Of a stretch of DNA of 64,000 bases, positions 1-30,494 are shown piece by piece (the first letter of the stretch is position 1; each line of letters opens with the position of its first letter). The stretch spans positions 152,168-216,167 of the forward strand of contig MFEK01000014.1 in NCBI GenBank assembly GCA_001779925.1, in the 5' to 3' direction. The DNA comes from Candidatus Doudnabacteria bacterium RIFCSPHIGHO2_01_FULL_46_14. Its GTDB lineage: Bacteria; Patescibacteriota; Doudnabacteria; UBA920; 2-01-FULL-46-14. The position numbers were made by a program, and so were the translations under genes. The notes beneath the pieces are model-generated. The model was given only the letters and a program-made list of their open reading frames with translations. It did not search any database and had not been told where the DNA came from.

Positions 1-2777
1 CGAGTGTTTCGACCAAGCTCAACATAAAAAACGCCAAACGGCAGGTGCAAAGTTGGGGCGTAGGTTTTGATTGGTCGCGCGAGATAAATACCACTGATCC
101 GGAATATTACAAATGGACACAGTGGATTTTCCTGCAGTTCTACAAAGCGGGACTCGCGTACGAAGCCGCGGGGCTTATCAACTGGTGTCCGCAGGACAAA
201 ACAGGACTCGCGAACGAAGAGGTGATAGACGGCAAATGCGAACGTTGCGGAACAGTGGTTGAGAAAAAAGAACTGCGCCAATGGTATCTGAAAATCACAG
301 CGTACGCCGAAAAGCTTCTTGAGGGATTGAAAAATCTTCCCGAATGGCCGGATCAGGTCAAGCTCCAGCAGGAAAACTGGATCGGGAAAAGCGAGGGCGC
401 GGAAATTGATTTTCCATTATTTGTTATTCCGGCCGCCGAGCCGGAATCCAGTCCGCCTCAGGCGGATGGATCCCGAAGACCCAAGTCCGGGATGACAAAC
501 TTTTTAATTCTCCATGGGTACACGGGCTCGGCAGGCAGGAATTTTATACCCTGGCTGAAAACAGAGCTTGAAAAACAGGGTTATAAAGTGCAAACACCTG
601 AGCTGCCGAATTCTGATGACCCAAAAGAATCTGAGCAGGTTGATTATATTTTAAAAAAATGCAGCATTGATGAGAATACGATTATAGTTGGTCATAGCCT
701 TGGCTGTATAGTCGCCATGAAAGCCCTGCAAAAATACGGAAAATCCGTTAAGGGGTTAATATTGCTGGATGCGGCCGTAGATCCTGCGTTTTCTGGCGCT
801 ACGCCTCGACCGTTCCACAAGAATTTTTCCTGGAATTTCGACTACGAAAGGTTAAAAAAATACGCACCTGCGCGGACCATACTTTCAGATTTAAAAGAGG
901 GCGAGCCGCGGGTGGGATATCTGAAAACTTTATCAAAGAAACTGGATGCGCAATTGATAACTGGGCGATCAACGGAGAATCACTTCACAGCTGAGCGAGA
1001 ACCATTGGTGTTAGAAATTCTCACCCCTCCCTCAATCCCTCCCCATCAAGGGGAGGGAAGAGGGGAAGGGATAAAAATTTTTACCACCAGGGTTGATACT
1101 TTACCAGGTGCGACCTTTATTGTAATTGCCCCGGAGCACCCTCTTATACAGAATTTTGCCTCAAGGATTTCGAATTTCAGCGAGGTGAGTAAATATATCG
1201 AGGAGGCAAAAAAGAAAACTGATATTGTCCGCTCCGCCAGGGACAAAGAAAAAACCGGGGTGGAATTGAAAGGTGTTAAAGTGGTTAATCCGGTTAATGG
1301 TGAAAAATTGCCGATTTGGGTTGCGGACTATGCTTTGATGGATTTTGGCACAGGCGCGTTATTTGGCGATGCGCACGACGAACGCGATCAAGCATTCGCC
1401 AAGAAATATAAAATTCCTTTAAAAGTAACTCTGAAGCCTGCAAACGGACGCGATGATTCAAAAATTCGGAATTTAGAAGAAGTCTTTATCGATGATGGTG
1501 TTTTGTATAATTCCGGAGAGTTCGATGGTCTATCTTCTGAAGAGGCTCGAAAAGTAATAACTAAATGGTTGGTAGATAAAAAATCAGGACGAGCGACTGT
1601 TTCTTACAAACTCCGCGATTGGGTGTTTTCCAGGCAGAGATATTGGGGCGAGCCGATTCCTATCATTCACTGCCCTGCGTGCGGAATAGTACCAGTACCG
1701 GAAAAAGATTTGCCGGTTCGGCTTCCGAACGTGAAAAAATATGAACCAACCGGAACAGGGGAATCGCCGCTCGCCGCGATAGACAAATGGGTGAAAGTGA
1801 AATGTCCAAACTGCAAAGGCCCAGCCAAACGCGAAACCAATACCATGCCGCAGTGGGCCGGCAGCTCTTGGTATTATTTGCGATACACTGACCCGAAAAA
1901 CAAGAACGAATTGGCAGATGATGAATTGATGAAACATTGGCTGCCGGTTGATGTGTATTTTGGCGGCACGGAACATACGACGCTTCACCTTTTGTATTCG
2001 CGTTTTTGGAATTTGTTTTTGCATGATCAGGGAATCGTGCCGGTAAGCGAGCCGTATACAAAGCGCGTGCCGCACGGGATTATTCTCGCCGAAGACGGGG
2101 AGAAGATGAGCAAAAGCCGGGGCAATGTAGTGAACCCTGATGAAATTGTGAACATATACGGCGCAGACACTTTGCGGATGTATGAGCTATTTTTGGGACC
2201 GCATGGGCAGACTGTTAGTTGGCATAGTCGCGGGATAATCGGTGTAAGGAGATTTTTGGAGAAAGTTTGGCGTCTCGCAAGCATAAAAGAATCATCAACA
2301 TCGCGGATTCAGAGTGATAAATTAGAGAGCATTATTCACAAGACTATTAAAAAAGTTACCGACGATATCGAAAATTTTCGTTTTAACACTGCGGTATCCG
2401 CACTGATGATTTTGGCGAATGAAATGGAAGGAAAACAAGTAAGCAAAAATGACATAACAAGACTGTTGAAATTATTAGCTCCATTTGCCCCCCATATGGC
2501 CGAAGATCTGTGGCGCGAATTGGGAAACAAAGTTTCAATTCATCTCGCACAGTGGCCGGAACATGATCCTGCTTTAGCTAAAGATGAATTTGTAAATGTT
2601 GCAGTGCAGATCAATGGCCGGGTTCGGGATACAGTGCGGATTGCAGTCGCGGCCAGCGAAGCCGAAGCAAGAAATTTTGCAGAAGCAAGCTCCCAAGTTC
2701 AAAAGCATCTGGTCGGTAAGCAAGTTGGGAAATTTATTTATATTCCCGGAAAAATTATTAATTTCGTCGTGAAATAA
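1..2777 (+). CDS. leuS: Leucyl-tRNA synthetase, 5'-truncated by the window edge; carries an inserted alpha/beta-hydrolase domain before the CP1 editing domain
   Basis: The frame is open from nt 3, so the N-terminus lies upstream of the window. Class-I LeuRS motifs are present: GFDWSRE, WCPQD, the CP1 entry motif FTTRxDTL, a KMSKS-like MSKSRGN, and a conserved C-terminal region. An extra stretch of about 220 aa lies between EGAEIDF and IFTTR. Confidence 0.9.
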   Translation, partial: SVSTKLNIKNAKRQVQSWGVGFDWSREINTTDPEYYKWTQWIFLQFYKAGLAYEAAGLINWCPQDKTGLANEEVIDGKCERCGTVVEKKELRQWYLKITAYAEKLLEGLKNLPEWPDQVKLQQENWIGKSEGAEIDFPLFVIPAAEPESSPPQADGSRRPKSGMTNFLILHGYTGSAGRNFIPWLKTELEKQGYKVQTPELPNSDDPKESEQVDYILKKCSIDENTIIVGHSLGCIVAMKALQKYGKSVKGLILLDAAVDPAFSGATPRPFHKNFSWNFDYERLKKYAPARTILSDLKEGEPRVGYLKTLSKKLDAQLITGRSTENHFTAEREPLVLEILTPPSIPPHQGEGRGEGIKIFTTRVDTLPGATFIVIAPEHPLIQNFASRISNFSEVSKYIEEAKKKTDIVRSARDKEKTGVELKGVKVVNPVNGEKLPIWVADYALMDFGTGALFGDAHDERDQAFAKKYKIPLKVTLKPANGRDDSKIRNLEEVFIDDGVLYNSGEFDGLSSEEARKVITKWLVDKKSGRATVSYKLRDWVFSRQRYWGEPIPIIHCPACGIVPVPEKDLPVRLPNVKKYEPTGTGESPLAAIDKWVKVKCPNCKGPAKRETNTMPQWAGSSWYYLRYTDPKNKNELADDELMKHWLPVDVYFGGTEHTTLHLLYSRFWNLFLHDQGIVPVSEPYTKRVPHGIILAEDGEKMSKSRGNVVNPDEIVNIYGADTLRMYELFLGPHGQTVSWHSRGIIGVRRFLEKVWRLASIKESSTSRIQSDKLESIIHKTIKKVTDDIENFRFNTAVSALMILANEMEGKQVSKNDITRLLKLLAPFAPHMAEDLWRELGNKVSIHLAQWPEHDPALAKDEFVNVAVQINGRVRDTVRIAVAASEAEARNFAEASSQVQKHLVGKQVGKFIYIPGKIINFVVK

Positions 2778-3451
2778 TGCAGGCTGTAATATTGGCTGCA
2801 GGATTCGGCACGCGAATGGGCGAGTTGACCAAAACCACGCCGAAGCCTCTTCTAAAAATCGGGAATAAAACCATTCTCGAACATAATCTTGAACAGCTTC
2901 CGGAAGAAATCGAAGAGGTGATTTTGGTTACTGGTTATTTGGGTGGACAAATTAAAAAAGCGATCGGGAATAATTTTGCGGGTAAAAAAATCACCTATGT
3001 AGATCAAAAAGAACTAAAGGGAACTGCTCACGCGCTTTATCAGAGCAAAGATTTGATTCGCGGGCGGTTTTTGGTGCTCATGGGCGATGATCTATATCAC
3101 AAACGCGATCTGGAAAAGCTTATTAAATATCCCCTGGCGATTCTTGTATGGCAGCTGCAAAATGGTGAAAGCGGGGAGGACCGGCACGCAATCGTGAAGG
3201 TCGATGAGGCTGGGGAACTTAGTGATATTGTCGAGCGACAACCTGCAAGAGAAGGGTCCCTAGTTAACACAGCGGCCTATATTTTAAATCAGAATTATTT
3301 CAACTACCCACTCGTTGGCGCTGGCATACCCGCGAAAGAATTTGGATTGCCTCAGACATTTTTGCAGATGGTTCGCGATGGCGCAAAATTTGCCGTAGTT
3401 CCTGCGGAAAAATGGCACAAGGTTGCTTCTCCTGAAGATTTAAAATTGTAA
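2777..3451 (+). CDS. Sugar-phosphate nucleotidyltransferase (NTP-transferase domain protein)
   Basis: The N-terminus MQAVILAAGFGTRMGELTKTTPKPLL matches the G-x-G-T-R nucleotidyltransferase signature. The ATG overlaps the leuS stop. Confidence 0.7.
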   Translation: MQAVILAAGFGTRMGELTKTTPKPLLKIGNKTILEHNLEQLPEEIEEVILVTGYLGGQIKKAIGNNFAGKKITYVDQKELKGTAHALYQSKDLIRGRFLVLMGDDLYHKRDLEKLIKYPLAILVWQLQNGESGEDRHAIVKVDEAGELSDIVERQPAREGSLVNTAAYILNQNYFNYPLVGAGIPAKEFGLPQTFLQMVRDGAKFAVVPAEKWHKVASPEDLKL

Positions 3452-3500: not shown

Positions 3501-4214
3501 ATGAATAAAGAACAAATAAGAATTGCTATTAATTACGTTAAAAATGGAAAGGCGGTGGTGTTTCCCACGGATACCGCCTATGGTCTTGGCGTGGATGCGA
3601 CGAACTCGAAAGCAGTAATGAGATTATTTAAGATTAAGAAGCGACGACCGACAAAACCGGTGCATATTGTAGTTTCAGGATTCGCAATGGCGAAGCGTTA
3701 TGCCAAGTTTTCGCCGCAGGCAGAGAAATTATTTAGAAAGTTTTTACCGGGAAAATTGACTTTGATTTTACCGTTCAAACCCCCTCCCTCCAGCCTTCGC
3801 GCGAGGCTACGGCGGACGCGGTCAGTCCCTCCCCAGATGGGGGAGGGAAGTTCATATCGAACTCTTTCCGCTGGCACCGGCACAATTGGTATCCGCATGC
3901 CGAAAGACAAGATTGCTCTGGGATTGGTGAAAAAATTGGGCAGGCCGATTACGGCAACCAGCGCCAATATATCCAGCGCGCCGACAGCTTATTCTGTTTC
4001 GCAAATAAAATGGCAGTATCGCAATAAAAAATTGAAACCGGATTTTTACCTGGATGGTGGAAAACTAAATAAGGTCAGGCCATCCACTATGGTAAGATTA
4101 ACTGGTAGCCGAATTGAAATTCTCAGACGCGGGCCGATAACCAAGAAGCAAATACTAAAATGTATCATTTCCGTTTCCCCCAATATTTCTCAATCTCGCC
4201 GAACCGCGAAGTAA
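3501..4214 (+). CDS. tsaC: L-threonylcarbamoyladenylate synthase (YrdC/Sua5 family), with an in-frame insertion of about 20 aa encoded by a palindromic repeat
   Basis: YrdC motifs are present: VVFPTDTAYGLG, KxRxxxKP and TSANxS. Relative to E. coli YrdC, an extra segment PPPSSLRARLRRTRSVPPQMGEGSS is encoded by the GC-rich palindrome at 3780-3850. Confidence 0.75.
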   Translation: MNKEQIRIAINYVKNGKAVVFPTDTAYGLGVDATNSKAVMRLFKIKKRRPTKPVHIVVSGFAMAKRYAKFSPQAEKLFRKFLPGKLTLILPFKPPPSSLRARLRRTRSVPPQMGEGSSYRTLSAGTGTIGIRMPKDKIALGLVKKLGRPITATSANISSAPTAYSVSQIKWQYRNKKLKPDFYLDGGKLNKVRPSTMVRLTGSRIEILRRGPITKKQILKCIISVSPNISQSRRTAK

Positions 4215-16583: not shown

Positions 16584-17642
16584 ATGCCAGACGATGTTTT
16601 TAAATTGGGCAATTTCGAGGATTTAACCGGTTCGGACATGAAGGACGAGTTTGATAAATTCGACAAGCTCGACCAGGACATGTCGCAGGAGGTGGCCGCG
16701 GATATGCAGAGGATTGAGGATAGGCTGGAGGAGGCAGATTCTACACCTCCCGGCCATACGGTCATTCTCCCCTCTGACAAGGAGAGGGAAACAAGGAATG
16801 TAACTTTGCATTCAAAGATCAAAGCTGATCCGCAGGCCAAGTTTCGCTCGCCCTGGGACGGCCAGGCTCTTTTGGAAATAGATGTCAATAATATCGTGCC
16901 CAATGAATTTCAGCCGCGACGGATATTCAATCCCGAAAAACTTCAGGAGCTGGCGGAATCCATAAAAGAACACGGCATCATCCAGCCGATGGTTGTGACA
17001 GAGCGTGATGACGGCAAATACGAAATCCTTGTGGGGGAACGGCGGTTTCGCGCCTCCAAGCTGGCAGGACTCACGAAAGTCCCCGCTTTGGTCTCGCCAA
17101 AGATTAACGCAGAGCAGAAATTAGAAATCGCGCTTATTGAAAACGTCCAGCGCGCAGAGCTCAATCCCATTGAAGAAGCAAAGGCTTATGAGAGGCTGAT
17201 TAACGAATTTGGCTTGAAGGTTATTGATATTGCCAAACGCGTAGGTAAAAATCAATCGACTGTGTCGAATTTACTCCGCTTGCTTAACCTCCCTGTTGAG
17301 GTTCAGCGTGCGCTTATTGAGGAGAAAATCGCTGAGGGTCAAGCCCGGCCGCTCTTAACGCTGCGCGATAAAGAAGAGATGCTGGAAATGTTCAAGGTCG
17401 TTATGCGAGAGGGGATGAAGGTTCGGGACATCGAGGCCAAGGTTCGCGAGATTTCCCGGCGTAAAATCAAAGTGCGGGAAATGTTCACAGCAGACCCTTT
17501 CCTGACCTCGCTTGAGAACATGCTCCGAGGCAAGCTCGGTACTCGCGTTGAGGTCAGCAAAGGCGCAAAAGGCGCGGGTAGAATTACTATTGAGTTTTTC
17601 TCAGATGAAGAATTGAATAATATTGTGGGAAAAATTTCTTGA
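16584..17642 (+). CDS. parB: ParB/Spo0J-family partition protein with an acidic N-terminal extension; no adjacent parA
   Basis: ParB box motifs GERRFRAS and ENVQR, and an HTH segment KNQSTVSNLLRLL. Confidence 0.8.
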   Translation: MPDDVFKLGNFEDLTGSDMKDEFDKFDKLDQDMSQEVAADMQRIEDRLEEADSTPPGHTVILPSDKERETRNVTLHSKIKADPQAKFRSPWDGQALLEIDVNNIVPNEFQPRRIFNPEKLQELAESIKEHGIIQPMVVTERDDGKYEILVGERRFRASKLAGLTKVPALVSPKINAEQKLEIALIENVQRAELNPIEEAKAYERLINEFGLKVIDIAKRVGKNQSTVSNLLRLLNLPVEVQRALIEEKIAEGQARPLLTLRDKEEMLEMFKVVMREGMKVRDIEAKVREISRRKIKVREMFTADPFLTSLENMLRGKLGTRVEVSKGAKGAGRITIEFFSDEELNNIVGKIS

Positions 17643-17645
17643 TTT

Positions 17646-17736
17646 AATTTCCCCTCCTCATGAGGAGGGGCAGGGGAGGTCTGTGATTGCTCTGCGACCC
17701 CCTCTTAATCTCCCCCTCATGAGGGGGAGAAAACGG
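17646..17736. repeat. GC-rich double-hairpin repeat element (copy 1, directly after the parB stop)
   Basis: Contains the hairpins CCCCTCCTCATGAGGAGGGG and CTCCCCCTCATGAGGGGGAG. It is about 80% identical to 62091-62180. Confidence 0.7.
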
Positions 17737-30337: not shown

Positions 30338-30437
30338 AAACAATGGATTCATTGAACGCGGTGCCACAATGCCCGCGTTTTTTTCACCCTTGTACCGCAC
30401 TTTAACCGATCGCGTAAACTGCAGTATATCCTAGCTA

Positions 30438-30475
30438 CCCTGCCAGTAATCCTCGGCCGAGGATTACTGGCAGGG
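30438..30475. repeat. 38-bp perfect palindrome with no spacer: CCCTGCCAGTAATCCTCGG|CCGAGGATTACTGGCAGGG
   Basis: Read directly from the sequence: two exact 19-bp reverse-complement arms with no spacer. Confidence 0.9.
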
Positions 30476-30494
30476 TGTTCCTGCAAAATCTTGG

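Follow-up and report, generated by a model that had tools for sequence, protein, structure and literature searches.

A predicted serine hydrolase nested in the editing domain of a Patescibacteria leucyl-tRNA synthetase

Aminoacyl-tRNA synthetases are known to gain extra domains. The leucyl-tRNA synthetase (LeuRS) gene, leuS, at the start of the DNA considered here (64,000 nucleotides of Candidatus Doudnabacteria bacterium RIFCSPHIGHO2_01_FULL_46_14, contig MFEK01000014.1, positions 152,168 to 216,167; all of it is called "the window" below) presents a form of such a gain in which the added domain has every appearance of a complete enzyme, nested within the existing CP1 editing domain and not appended. 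What is a serine hydrolase doing there? The answer to which the evidence leads, at roughly even odds (a probability of about 0.5), is that it is an autonomous, predicted active module carried at a permissive loop of the synthetase. The principal competing answer is that its chemistry is coupled to that of its host.

The boundaries of the insert are sharply drawn. EGAEIDF ends at window position 413, IKIFTTRVDT begins at 1071, and the in-frame sequence between them, 414-1070 (P233-G451), adds roughly 218 residues. The alignment with Thermus thermophilus LeuRS, which lacks these residues, breaks exactly between its positions 236 and 237 (…EGAEILFPV / EGKEVRIPVFTTRPDT…), where the beta-strand linker enters CP1. 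This puts the insert in the turn of the first CP1 beta-hairpin, with T247 of the TTRxDT editing motif 10 residues further on, and the Pfam editing-domain profile is interrupted there between its positions 17 and 18. From NWIG to TTR there are 235 residues here and 24 in insert-less relatives, that is, 211 extra. The original prediction, made from the letters of the window alone, had placed some 220 extra residues at the entrance to the editing domain, and both the size and the site are borne out. The elements of the insert, with the LeuRS strand that leads into it, are as follows.

393-413, plus strand: EGAEIDF, the beta-strand from the catalytic body into CP1 and the last LeuRS residues before the insert (aligns with T. 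thermophilus 230-236; strand E224-236 in the full-length AlphaFold2 model).
414-497, plus strand: N-terminal linker, P233-T260 (homologue alignment; predicted local distance difference test score, pLDDT, below 50 at 238-248 and 251-258 in AlphaFold2).
498-1022, plus strand: core of the YdeN/RBBP9-type (PF06821) alpha/beta serine hydrolase, N261-L435 (Pfam; match to 1UXO; AlphaFold2 and Foldseek).
696-698, plus strand: Ser327, predicted nucleophile in the GHSLG elbow (Ser in 147 of 148 embedded copies, the remaining one having a gap; invariant in an alignment of 64 insert-bearing LeuRS).
897-899, plus strand: Glu394, predicted triad acid (the column holds Asp in 111 and Glu in 32 of the 148 embedded copies; aligns with the second Asp of the KDD segment of YdeN, 1UXO).
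981-983, plus strand: His422, predicted catalytic histidine (His in 147 of the 148 embedded copies, a gap in the other).
1023-1070, plus strand: C-terminal linker (homologue alignment; AlphaFold2 pLDDT below 50 at 438-448).

That the inserted residues follow the pattern of YdeN/RBBP9 serine hydrolases, GHSLG nucleophile elbow included, had also been proposed, and profile, structure and motif now agree on it. The 220-residue stretch scores 47.6 bits against Pfam Abhydrolase_1 (cut-off 25.8, E 2e-12) and 39.2 bits against Ser_hydrolase, PF06821 (cut-off 22, E 9e-10); the PF06821 alignment spans profile positions 1-94 only, and the phmmer alignment to 1UXO spans insert residues 28-194. PDB entry 1UXO, YdeN, is the closest solved structure by sequence (E 9e-13), followed by human RBBP9. 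(A correction of detail: the YdeN of the original prediction was ascribed to E. coli; the solved YdeN, 1UXO, is the Bacillus subtilis protein.) An AlphaFold2 model of the insert has a mean pLDDT of 85.8, exceeding 90 across most of residues 30-180, and its best PDB matches in Foldseek are 1UXO and four RBBP9 entries (target-normalised template modelling score 0.77-0.83, E <= 2e-10); in the full-length LeuRS model the hydrolase core lies mostly between 83 and 97. The insert has the same lid-less alpha/beta-hydrolase fold as YdeN and human RBBP9 (2QS9, 7OEX, 9FCR), some 180 residues in size, and it has in common with them the G-H-S-x-G elbow, the HG oxyanion motif and the Ser-acid-His order. It differs from them in being nested within another enzyme, the others being free-standing, in having Glu rather than Asp as the triad acid, and in the residue that follows the nucleophile, which is Leu here and Ser in RBBP9 (GHSSG). 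By sequence and predicted fold, then, the insert is a complete PF06821-family serine hydrolase. The editing domains known from other synthetases are no relatives of it: ProRS INS, AlaX, YbaK and Dtd are likewise hydrolytic domains physically tied to a synthetase, but they are not homologous to the insert, which is an alpha/beta hydrolase with a Ser-acid-His triad, and a Pfam search down to E = 1 matched alpha/beta-hydrolase families only, not AlaX/tRNA_SAD, YbaK/INS or Dtd.

Is it an active enzyme? Of the 148 embedded copies, which are only about 41% identical to each other on average, 143 have Asp or Glu as the triad acid. The retention of the triad in nearly all copies in spite of that divergence argues for selection on the enzyme activity of the predicted hydrolase. 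A different possibility is a pseudoenzyme, a structural addition that modulates CP1 movement or tRNA binding without catalysis; its position at the hinge between the beta-strand linker and CP1 would suit such a part, as would the fact that the embedded subfamily has conserved surface residues of its own. It is nonetheless highly improbable, given the essentially invariant Ser, His and acid, an oxyanion HG motif kept in 90-95% of the copies, and the dispensability of the domain in close relatives.

Nor can the arrangement readily be put down to the metagenomic origin of the window, the one circumstance that speaks for an assembly chimera or a frameshift artefact. That explanation is scarcely credible. 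A lookup with the downstream neighbour of leuS (window 2777-3451) found the same genome at 100% identity in six public assemblies; four of these, independent of each other (an ENA scaffold, two MEGAHIT assemblies and one from JGI), contain the whole of leuS with identical sequence, and two Logan contigs, in addition, overlap the 3' end of the gene. The same frame, site and architecture recur in more than 100 divergent homologues, drawn from many studies. When the gene is aligned with its relatives in the candidate phyla radiation (CPR), as the original prediction had advised, the hydrolase domain is found in 107 of the 120 nearest LeuRS clusters (Patescibacteria), nearly all with the domain at the same site. 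Where identity is reported, these clusters are 51-67% identical to the LeuRS in the window; those that are named go by Doudnabacteria, Paceibacterota, Taylorbacteria, Patescibacteria group bacterium or plain bacterium. The insert adds a median of 178 residues in the 83 parsed LeuRS that have one copy only at this site. Judged by this distribution the architecture is inherited rather than private to this genome, and most LeuRS in a large Patescibacteria clade have the hydrolase.

What distinguishes the LeuRS in the window is its linkers. Homologues typically connect the hydrolase to CP1 through 2-4 residues only; here the N-terminal linker exceeds that of most homologues by about 21 residues, is of low complexity and is predicted to be disordered, and the C-terminal linker has been enlarged by a small element of its own (discussed at the end). 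Both linkers are thus expanded and disordered in the model, predicting a loose geometry.

The host enzyme is seemingly unimpaired. Frame 3 runs uninterrupted from window position 3 to a stop at 2775-2777, an open frame of 924 codons rather than the 910 first given for it; the full gene encodes 1019 amino acids, its first 95 codons, with the HMGH motif (residue 47; full-length gene in locus L001, 6942-10001), lying upstream of the window.

3-2777, plus strand: leuS, last 924 codons and stop (open reading frame and translation; Pfam; match to 1H3N).
1071-1571, plus strand: remainder of the CP1 editing domain (Pfam tRNA-synt_1_2, profile positions 18-184).
1080-1100, plus strand: T-rich motif FTTRVDT, within CP1.
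1374-1388, plus strand: HDERD with catalytic Asp554, within CP1.
2103-2117, plus strand: KMSKS motif of the synthetic site, residues 796-800 (sequence; K796-K799 invariant in the alignment).

Pfam recognises tRNA-synt_1, tRNA-synt_1_2 (E 1e-53) and Anticodon_1 (E 2e-23), and T. thermophilus LeuRS (1H3N) aligns over residues 1-1019 except for the insert (E 6e-235), with a local identity of roughly 50-60% in the matched segments. The HIGH, KMSKS, TTRxDT and HDxRD motifs and the anticodon-binding and C-terminal domains are common to this protein and to bacterial LeuRS with CP1 (T. thermophilus 1H3N/2BYT; E. coli 4AQ7). In the 64 insert-bearing LeuRS T456, T457, R458, T461, H553, D554, R556 and D557 are invariant, as are the first four residues of KMSKS. 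The full-length AlphaFold2 model has a pLDDT of 86 and a predicted template modelling score of 0.73, with very low confidence confined to the two linkers (238-258, 438-448) and a short loop at 860-864. HIGH, KMSKS, the CP1 catalytic residues and the anticodon domain all read as intact, in agreement with the claim originally made for CP1, KMSKS and the anticodon-binding region. Since the CP1 editing residues are invariant in LeuRS that bear the insert, CP1 editing is, on this evidence, not replaced by the hydrolase. And since synthetic site, CP1 site and Ser-Glu-His triad are all intact, the single polypeptide is predicted to hold three catalytic centres. The gene stands in a MetRS-TatD-LeuRS neighbourhood that is common to insert-less relatives, and it is probably the housekeeping orthologue of this organism, not a paralogue.

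Two minor features of leuS can be recorded here. The alignment skips T. thermophilus residues ~594-636, at window ~2090-2105 (LeuRS residues ~790-800): the leucine-specific domain that precedes KMSKS in the T. thermophilus enzyme has no counterpart here and appears to be missing. At the other end of the gene, the TAA stop shares one base with the ATG of the next gene, an NTP_transferase (window 2775-2779), an overlap that suggests translational coupling in an operon.

How, then, does the hydrolase come to be where it is, and what might it do? In the reading that we favor it would fold by itself at a structurally permissive surface loop of LeuRS; by analogy with RBBP9 it would cleave a small acyl or aminoacyl ester or amide, and it would do so independently of leucylation and CP1 editing, LeuRS serving it as an essential and constitutively expressed carrier. 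RBBP9 is an aminopeptidase, which cleaves N-terminal residues from substrates whose alpha-amine must be free (PMC8866121); it is also cited as the enzyme that activates valacyclovir, an L-valyl ester (Shenoy 2020, given as reference 5 in PMC7730578). Because RBBP9 cleaves aminoacyl amides and esters, an aminoacyl-ester substrate is chemically plausible for the embedded hydrolase also.

The same chemistry can be turned to the service of the host. In that case the hydrolase would be coupled to the synthetase as a third proofreading or clearance site, acting on mischarged aminoacyl-tRNA(Leu), on non-cognate aminoacyl-adenylate, or on adenylate-mimicking inhibitors set free at the enzyme. This is possible, if distinctly the weaker proposition. 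It draws on the placement of the domain upon CP1, 10 residues before the T-rich editing motif, on the family's cleavage of aminoacyl amides and esters with a free alpha-amine, and on the invariance of the triad. Precedent exists in MccF, a serine peptidase, and MccE/RimL, a GNAT: these microcin C immunity enzymes have as their substrates aminoacyl-nucleotides that mimic the intermediates of synthetases (PMC8323819), and both a hydrolase and a GNAT are among the guests of CPR synthetases, the GNAT in ValRS. The parallel is analogy only: MccF belongs to the S66 family and the insert to PF06821. To this must be opposed the invariance of the CP1 editing residues, which leaves no editing gap to fill, and the long linkers, predicted to be disordered, of the LeuRS in the window. 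The residues with which RBBP9 binds the alpha-amine are, moreover, not conserved: the loop that holds Glu108 in RBBP9 carries a conserved Arg (Arg364) in the embedded subfamily.

The wider census of hosts cuts both ways. (A technical note on searches: a word-indexed search with the 220-residue insert alone returned only free-standing proteins of about 187 residues and missed all embedded copies, even the identical P0028, while the full-length query and a full HMMER scan did return LeuRS-embedded copies; the uniqueness of the fusion in the word search is therefore a limit of method. A GTDB genome scan with full LeuRS was swamped by generic LeuRS motifs and showed the hydrolase in 4 of 80 loci, and several of its long matches are adjacent MetRS, TatD and LeuRS genes.) The HMMER scan, with the insert as query, covered 1.84 billion cluster representatives and was followed by Pfam scans of the hits; the census drawn from it is biased by the LeuRS-embedded query and takes in the best 150 hits only. 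Within those limits, hydrolases of this subfamily also lie nested in ValRS, AlaRS, TsaD, an Fmt-like formyltransferase, SecA and UvrA, and are joined end-to-end with NUDIX, peptidase S51, glyoxalase, Smr and nucleotidyltransferase domains. In the domain tree the embedded copies from hosts other than LeuRS are mixed among the LeuRS copies, as are a few free-standing genes; P0161 in locus L211 is a free-standing member of the embedded-type clade.

LeuRS itself offers lodging at more than one address and to more than one guest. At the same hairpin site other LeuRS have two hydrolases in tandem, Ham1 replacing the hydrolase, or NUDIX together with the hydrolase. A second site in CP1, between HDxRD and RDW, holds NUDIX, HAD, a methyltransferase or a second hydrolase, and at a third site a hydrolase follows the RDW…SRQRYWG motif. 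(LeuRS homologues with other nested guests are P0042, P0038, P0056/P0087, P0143, P0029, P0142 and P0201.) Among the 120 ValRS clusters nearest to one hydrolase-bearing ValRS, a hydrolase lies about 70 residues before KMSKS in 40, and the precomputed Pfam column shows other guests besides: HAD in ~21, GNAT in ~13, DUF559/Vsr-like in ~7, Ham1 in ~4 and NUDIX in ~3.

The original prediction had offered an extra aminoacyl-ester deacylase on the ground of the editing site. This is not established: the same hydrolase subfamily occurs at other sites of LeuRS and in other hosts, and unrelated enzymes occupy the same loops, so that lying close to the editing site does not speak specifically for a role in editing. 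Coupling to the synthetase is further disfavored by the presence of the domain in SecA and UvrA, by the distance in sequence of the ValRS copy from CP1, and by the repeated loss of the insert in close relatives.

There is, however, a case to be made against the autonomous module, and it is best stated in one place. 1) LeuRS is by far the commonest host, with three different sites in use. 2) Of the seven host families, five work on tRNA or aminoacyl-tRNA; for coupling, the point is that the hosts are rich in editing synthetases and tRNA enzymes (LeuRS at three sites, ValRS, AlaRS, TsaD, the Fmt-like protein). 3) The short linkers of most homologues hold the domain rigidly on CP1. Together, hosts, sites and linkers hint at tRNA or adenylate chemistry rather than at a neutral carrier. 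4) The RBBP9 substrate analogy looks weak for the embedded subfamily because the residues that would hold the amine differ: there is no Ser after the nucleophile, and the subfamily has conserved residues of its own (F358, R364, D391, E428-P429). 5) LeuRS-core identity correlates only weakly with identity in the hydrolase or in CP1, and the trees are rough neighbour-joining trees. It is the enrichment of tRNA-handling hosts, with the MccF/MccE precedent, that keeps a coupled function alive. One can go further and suppose that the nested guests at large (PF06821 hydrolase, GNAT, NUDIX, HAD, Ham1, methyltransferase) are quality-control or immunity modules, stationed on target to break down or alter aminoacyl esters, aminoacyl-adenylates or adenylate-mimicking antibiotics at the very enzyme that produces or binds them, with the hydrolase as a third proofreading or detoxifying centre of LeuRS that travels as a mobile cassette by way of its conserved flanks. 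This is speculation, and rather unlikely to be right in full.

That the hydrolase behaves as a cassette is suggested by its own history. Insert-less LeuRS, of about 800 residues, appear in at least 5 separate places within the insert-bearing clades of the rough neighbour-joining core tree. P0030 has the LeuRS core nearest to this one, with 91% and 80% identity in the N- and C-terminal catalytic segments, and its hydrolase is just 45% identical; conversely, hydrolases 58-60% identical occur in LeuRS whose cores are 57-79% identical. This disagreement between hydrolase and core identities suggests replacement of the cassette between lineages. The autonomous-module reading would accordingly treat the cassette as a swappable unit, capable of precise loss, replacement by a divergent subtype, tandem duplication and moves to other loops and other essential proteins, and probably spread through homologous recombination in the very conserved flanking synthetase sequence.

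Might such a cassette be merely selfish? It could be a parasite of essential genes, like an intein that does not splice, kept because imprecise deletion is lethal and spreading through conserved flanks to nobody's benefit. Its patchy presence and absence and its replaced cassettes are what one would look for, all of its hosts are highly conserved essential proteins, the flanks of the insert are 80-97% identical in most nearest homologues, and endonuclease domains of DUF559/Vsr-like type are nested in related ValRS genes. The last point was borne out by Pfam scans of seven proteins; in the ValRS relatives P0351, P0355, P0390, P0399 and P0401 (and in locus L213) the domain is in-frame, sometimes beside the hydrolase and sometimes near the N-terminus, and may hint at a homing-like mobility of the cassettes. 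A purely selfish element is all the same quite unlikely: the triad and ~20 further positions are conserved across copies 30-60% identical, indicating selection on the enzyme itself; the junctions lack intein splice motifs; there is no endonuclease in this gene or in LeuRS among the matches listed; and target-site duplications, terminal repeats and anomalous base composition are absent. The domesticated selfish insertion that had been suggested at the outset is the better fit to the patchy, cassette-like evolution; the invariant triad, on the other hand, argues for a selected enzyme activity.

The likeness to inteins deserves to be spelled out. Inteins, too, are autonomous folds set in-frame at very conserved sites of essential genes, patchy in distribution and apparently replaced horizontally. 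They differ in having a Hint fold, splice-junction residues and a homing endonuclease, none of which is present in the gene here, and in splicing out, whereas the hydrolase remains part of the mature protein, its own enzymatic triad retained. In the homologue alignment intein splice motifs were not found at the junctions, whose residues vary between homologues; the LeuRS here has no Hint or intein Pfam hit; and Rfam, which would find group I or II intron RNA, gives three tRNAs only in the window and nothing in leuS. With the frame kept in more than 100 homologues, an intein or intron can be dismissed. So can a transposon-like footprint: no credible direct or inverted repeats or target-site duplications flank 414-1070, and the base composition of the insert is not anomalous.

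The hydrolase in LeuRS is, as read from these host proteins, one case of a general nesting of small enzymes in CPR synthetases. The favored account would make this a general habit of CPR bacteria: hydrolase, NUDIX, HAD, Ham1, GNAT, methyltransferase and DUF559 endonuclease, all nested in class Ia synthetases. Seemingly the phenomenon is widespread and undescribed; targeted full-text literature searches turned up neither an account of a LeuRS with a nested hydrolase nor one of nested enzymes in CPR synthetases. There is a practical consequence for annotation, in that automatic naming is inconsistent: database labels for these genes include "leucine--tRNA ligase", "alpha/beta fold hydrolase", "hypothetical protein" and [quoted passage not shown]. 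Should aminoacyl esters or adenylates prove to be its substrates, the hydrolase would add a new level to translational quality control, or to antibiotic immunity. Otherwise it offers a clear natural system for the insertion, swapping and loss of enzymes inside essential genes of very small genomes, and it would reveal loops of synthetases that tolerate insertions of ~20 kDa. The company kept by related proteins is a further, slender clue: NUDIX-hydrolase two-domain proteins occur (P0012, P0023, P0271), and the free-standing PF06821 genes P0001 and P0003 (loci L087 and L088) have Macro-domain, NUDIX and HAD genes beside or near them. Such company suggests that hydrolase and NUDIX are associated repeatedly, and hints at "house-cleaning" neighbourhoods, too thin a basis on which to define a pathway.

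There remains the palindromic repeat that the original prediction had noticed at 1024-1070. It does coincide with the C-terminal junction of the insert, but it belongs to a separate insertion of 13 codons and offers no explanation of the older hydrolase insertion. The palindrome, TCCCTCCCC-N5-GGGGAGGGA, occupies 1036-1058 (arms 1036-1044 and 1050-1058), inside a 39-nucleotide in-frame insertion at 1029-1067 (PSIPPHQGEGRGE) in the C-terminal linker, which is missing in 16 of 16 aligned homologues. Because these homologues lack its 13 codons, the element is to all appearances a recent, species-specific in-frame insertion into an already flexible linker. As cause or scar of the hydrolase insertion, which is far older, it is rejected on the same comparison.

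The palindrome has a second copy in the window, at 3826-3848, making 2 matches in total where 0.02 are expected. It lies in the Sua5/TsaC (threonylcarbamoyl-AMP synthase) open reading frame at 3501-4214, within an in-frame insertion of ~22 residues (KPPPSSLRARLRRTRSVPPQMGEGSSY) at a point where a solved homologue, 6F89, has 5 residues. With copies within both leuS and Sua5/TsaC, small GC-rich palindromes seem to insert in-frame into coding loops of this genome, and they recall the Rickettsia palindromic elements. (A metagenome scan for the palindrome pattern gave more than 120 scattered matches, nearly all of one site per locus, and was uninformative.) Elsewhere in the window, a GC-rich inverted repeat, TTTCCCCTCCTCATGAGGAGG … CCCCCTCATGAGGGGGAGAAA, at 17648-17732 directly follows the stop of a 352-residue open reading frame (16584-17642), which we take from its sequence to be ParB-like; the repeat is probably a terminator, and is similar in sequence flavour to the coding palindromes. 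A perfect 40-nucleotide palindrome (ACCCTGCCAGTAATCCTCGG/CCGAGGATTACTGGCAGGGT) is found at 30437-30476.

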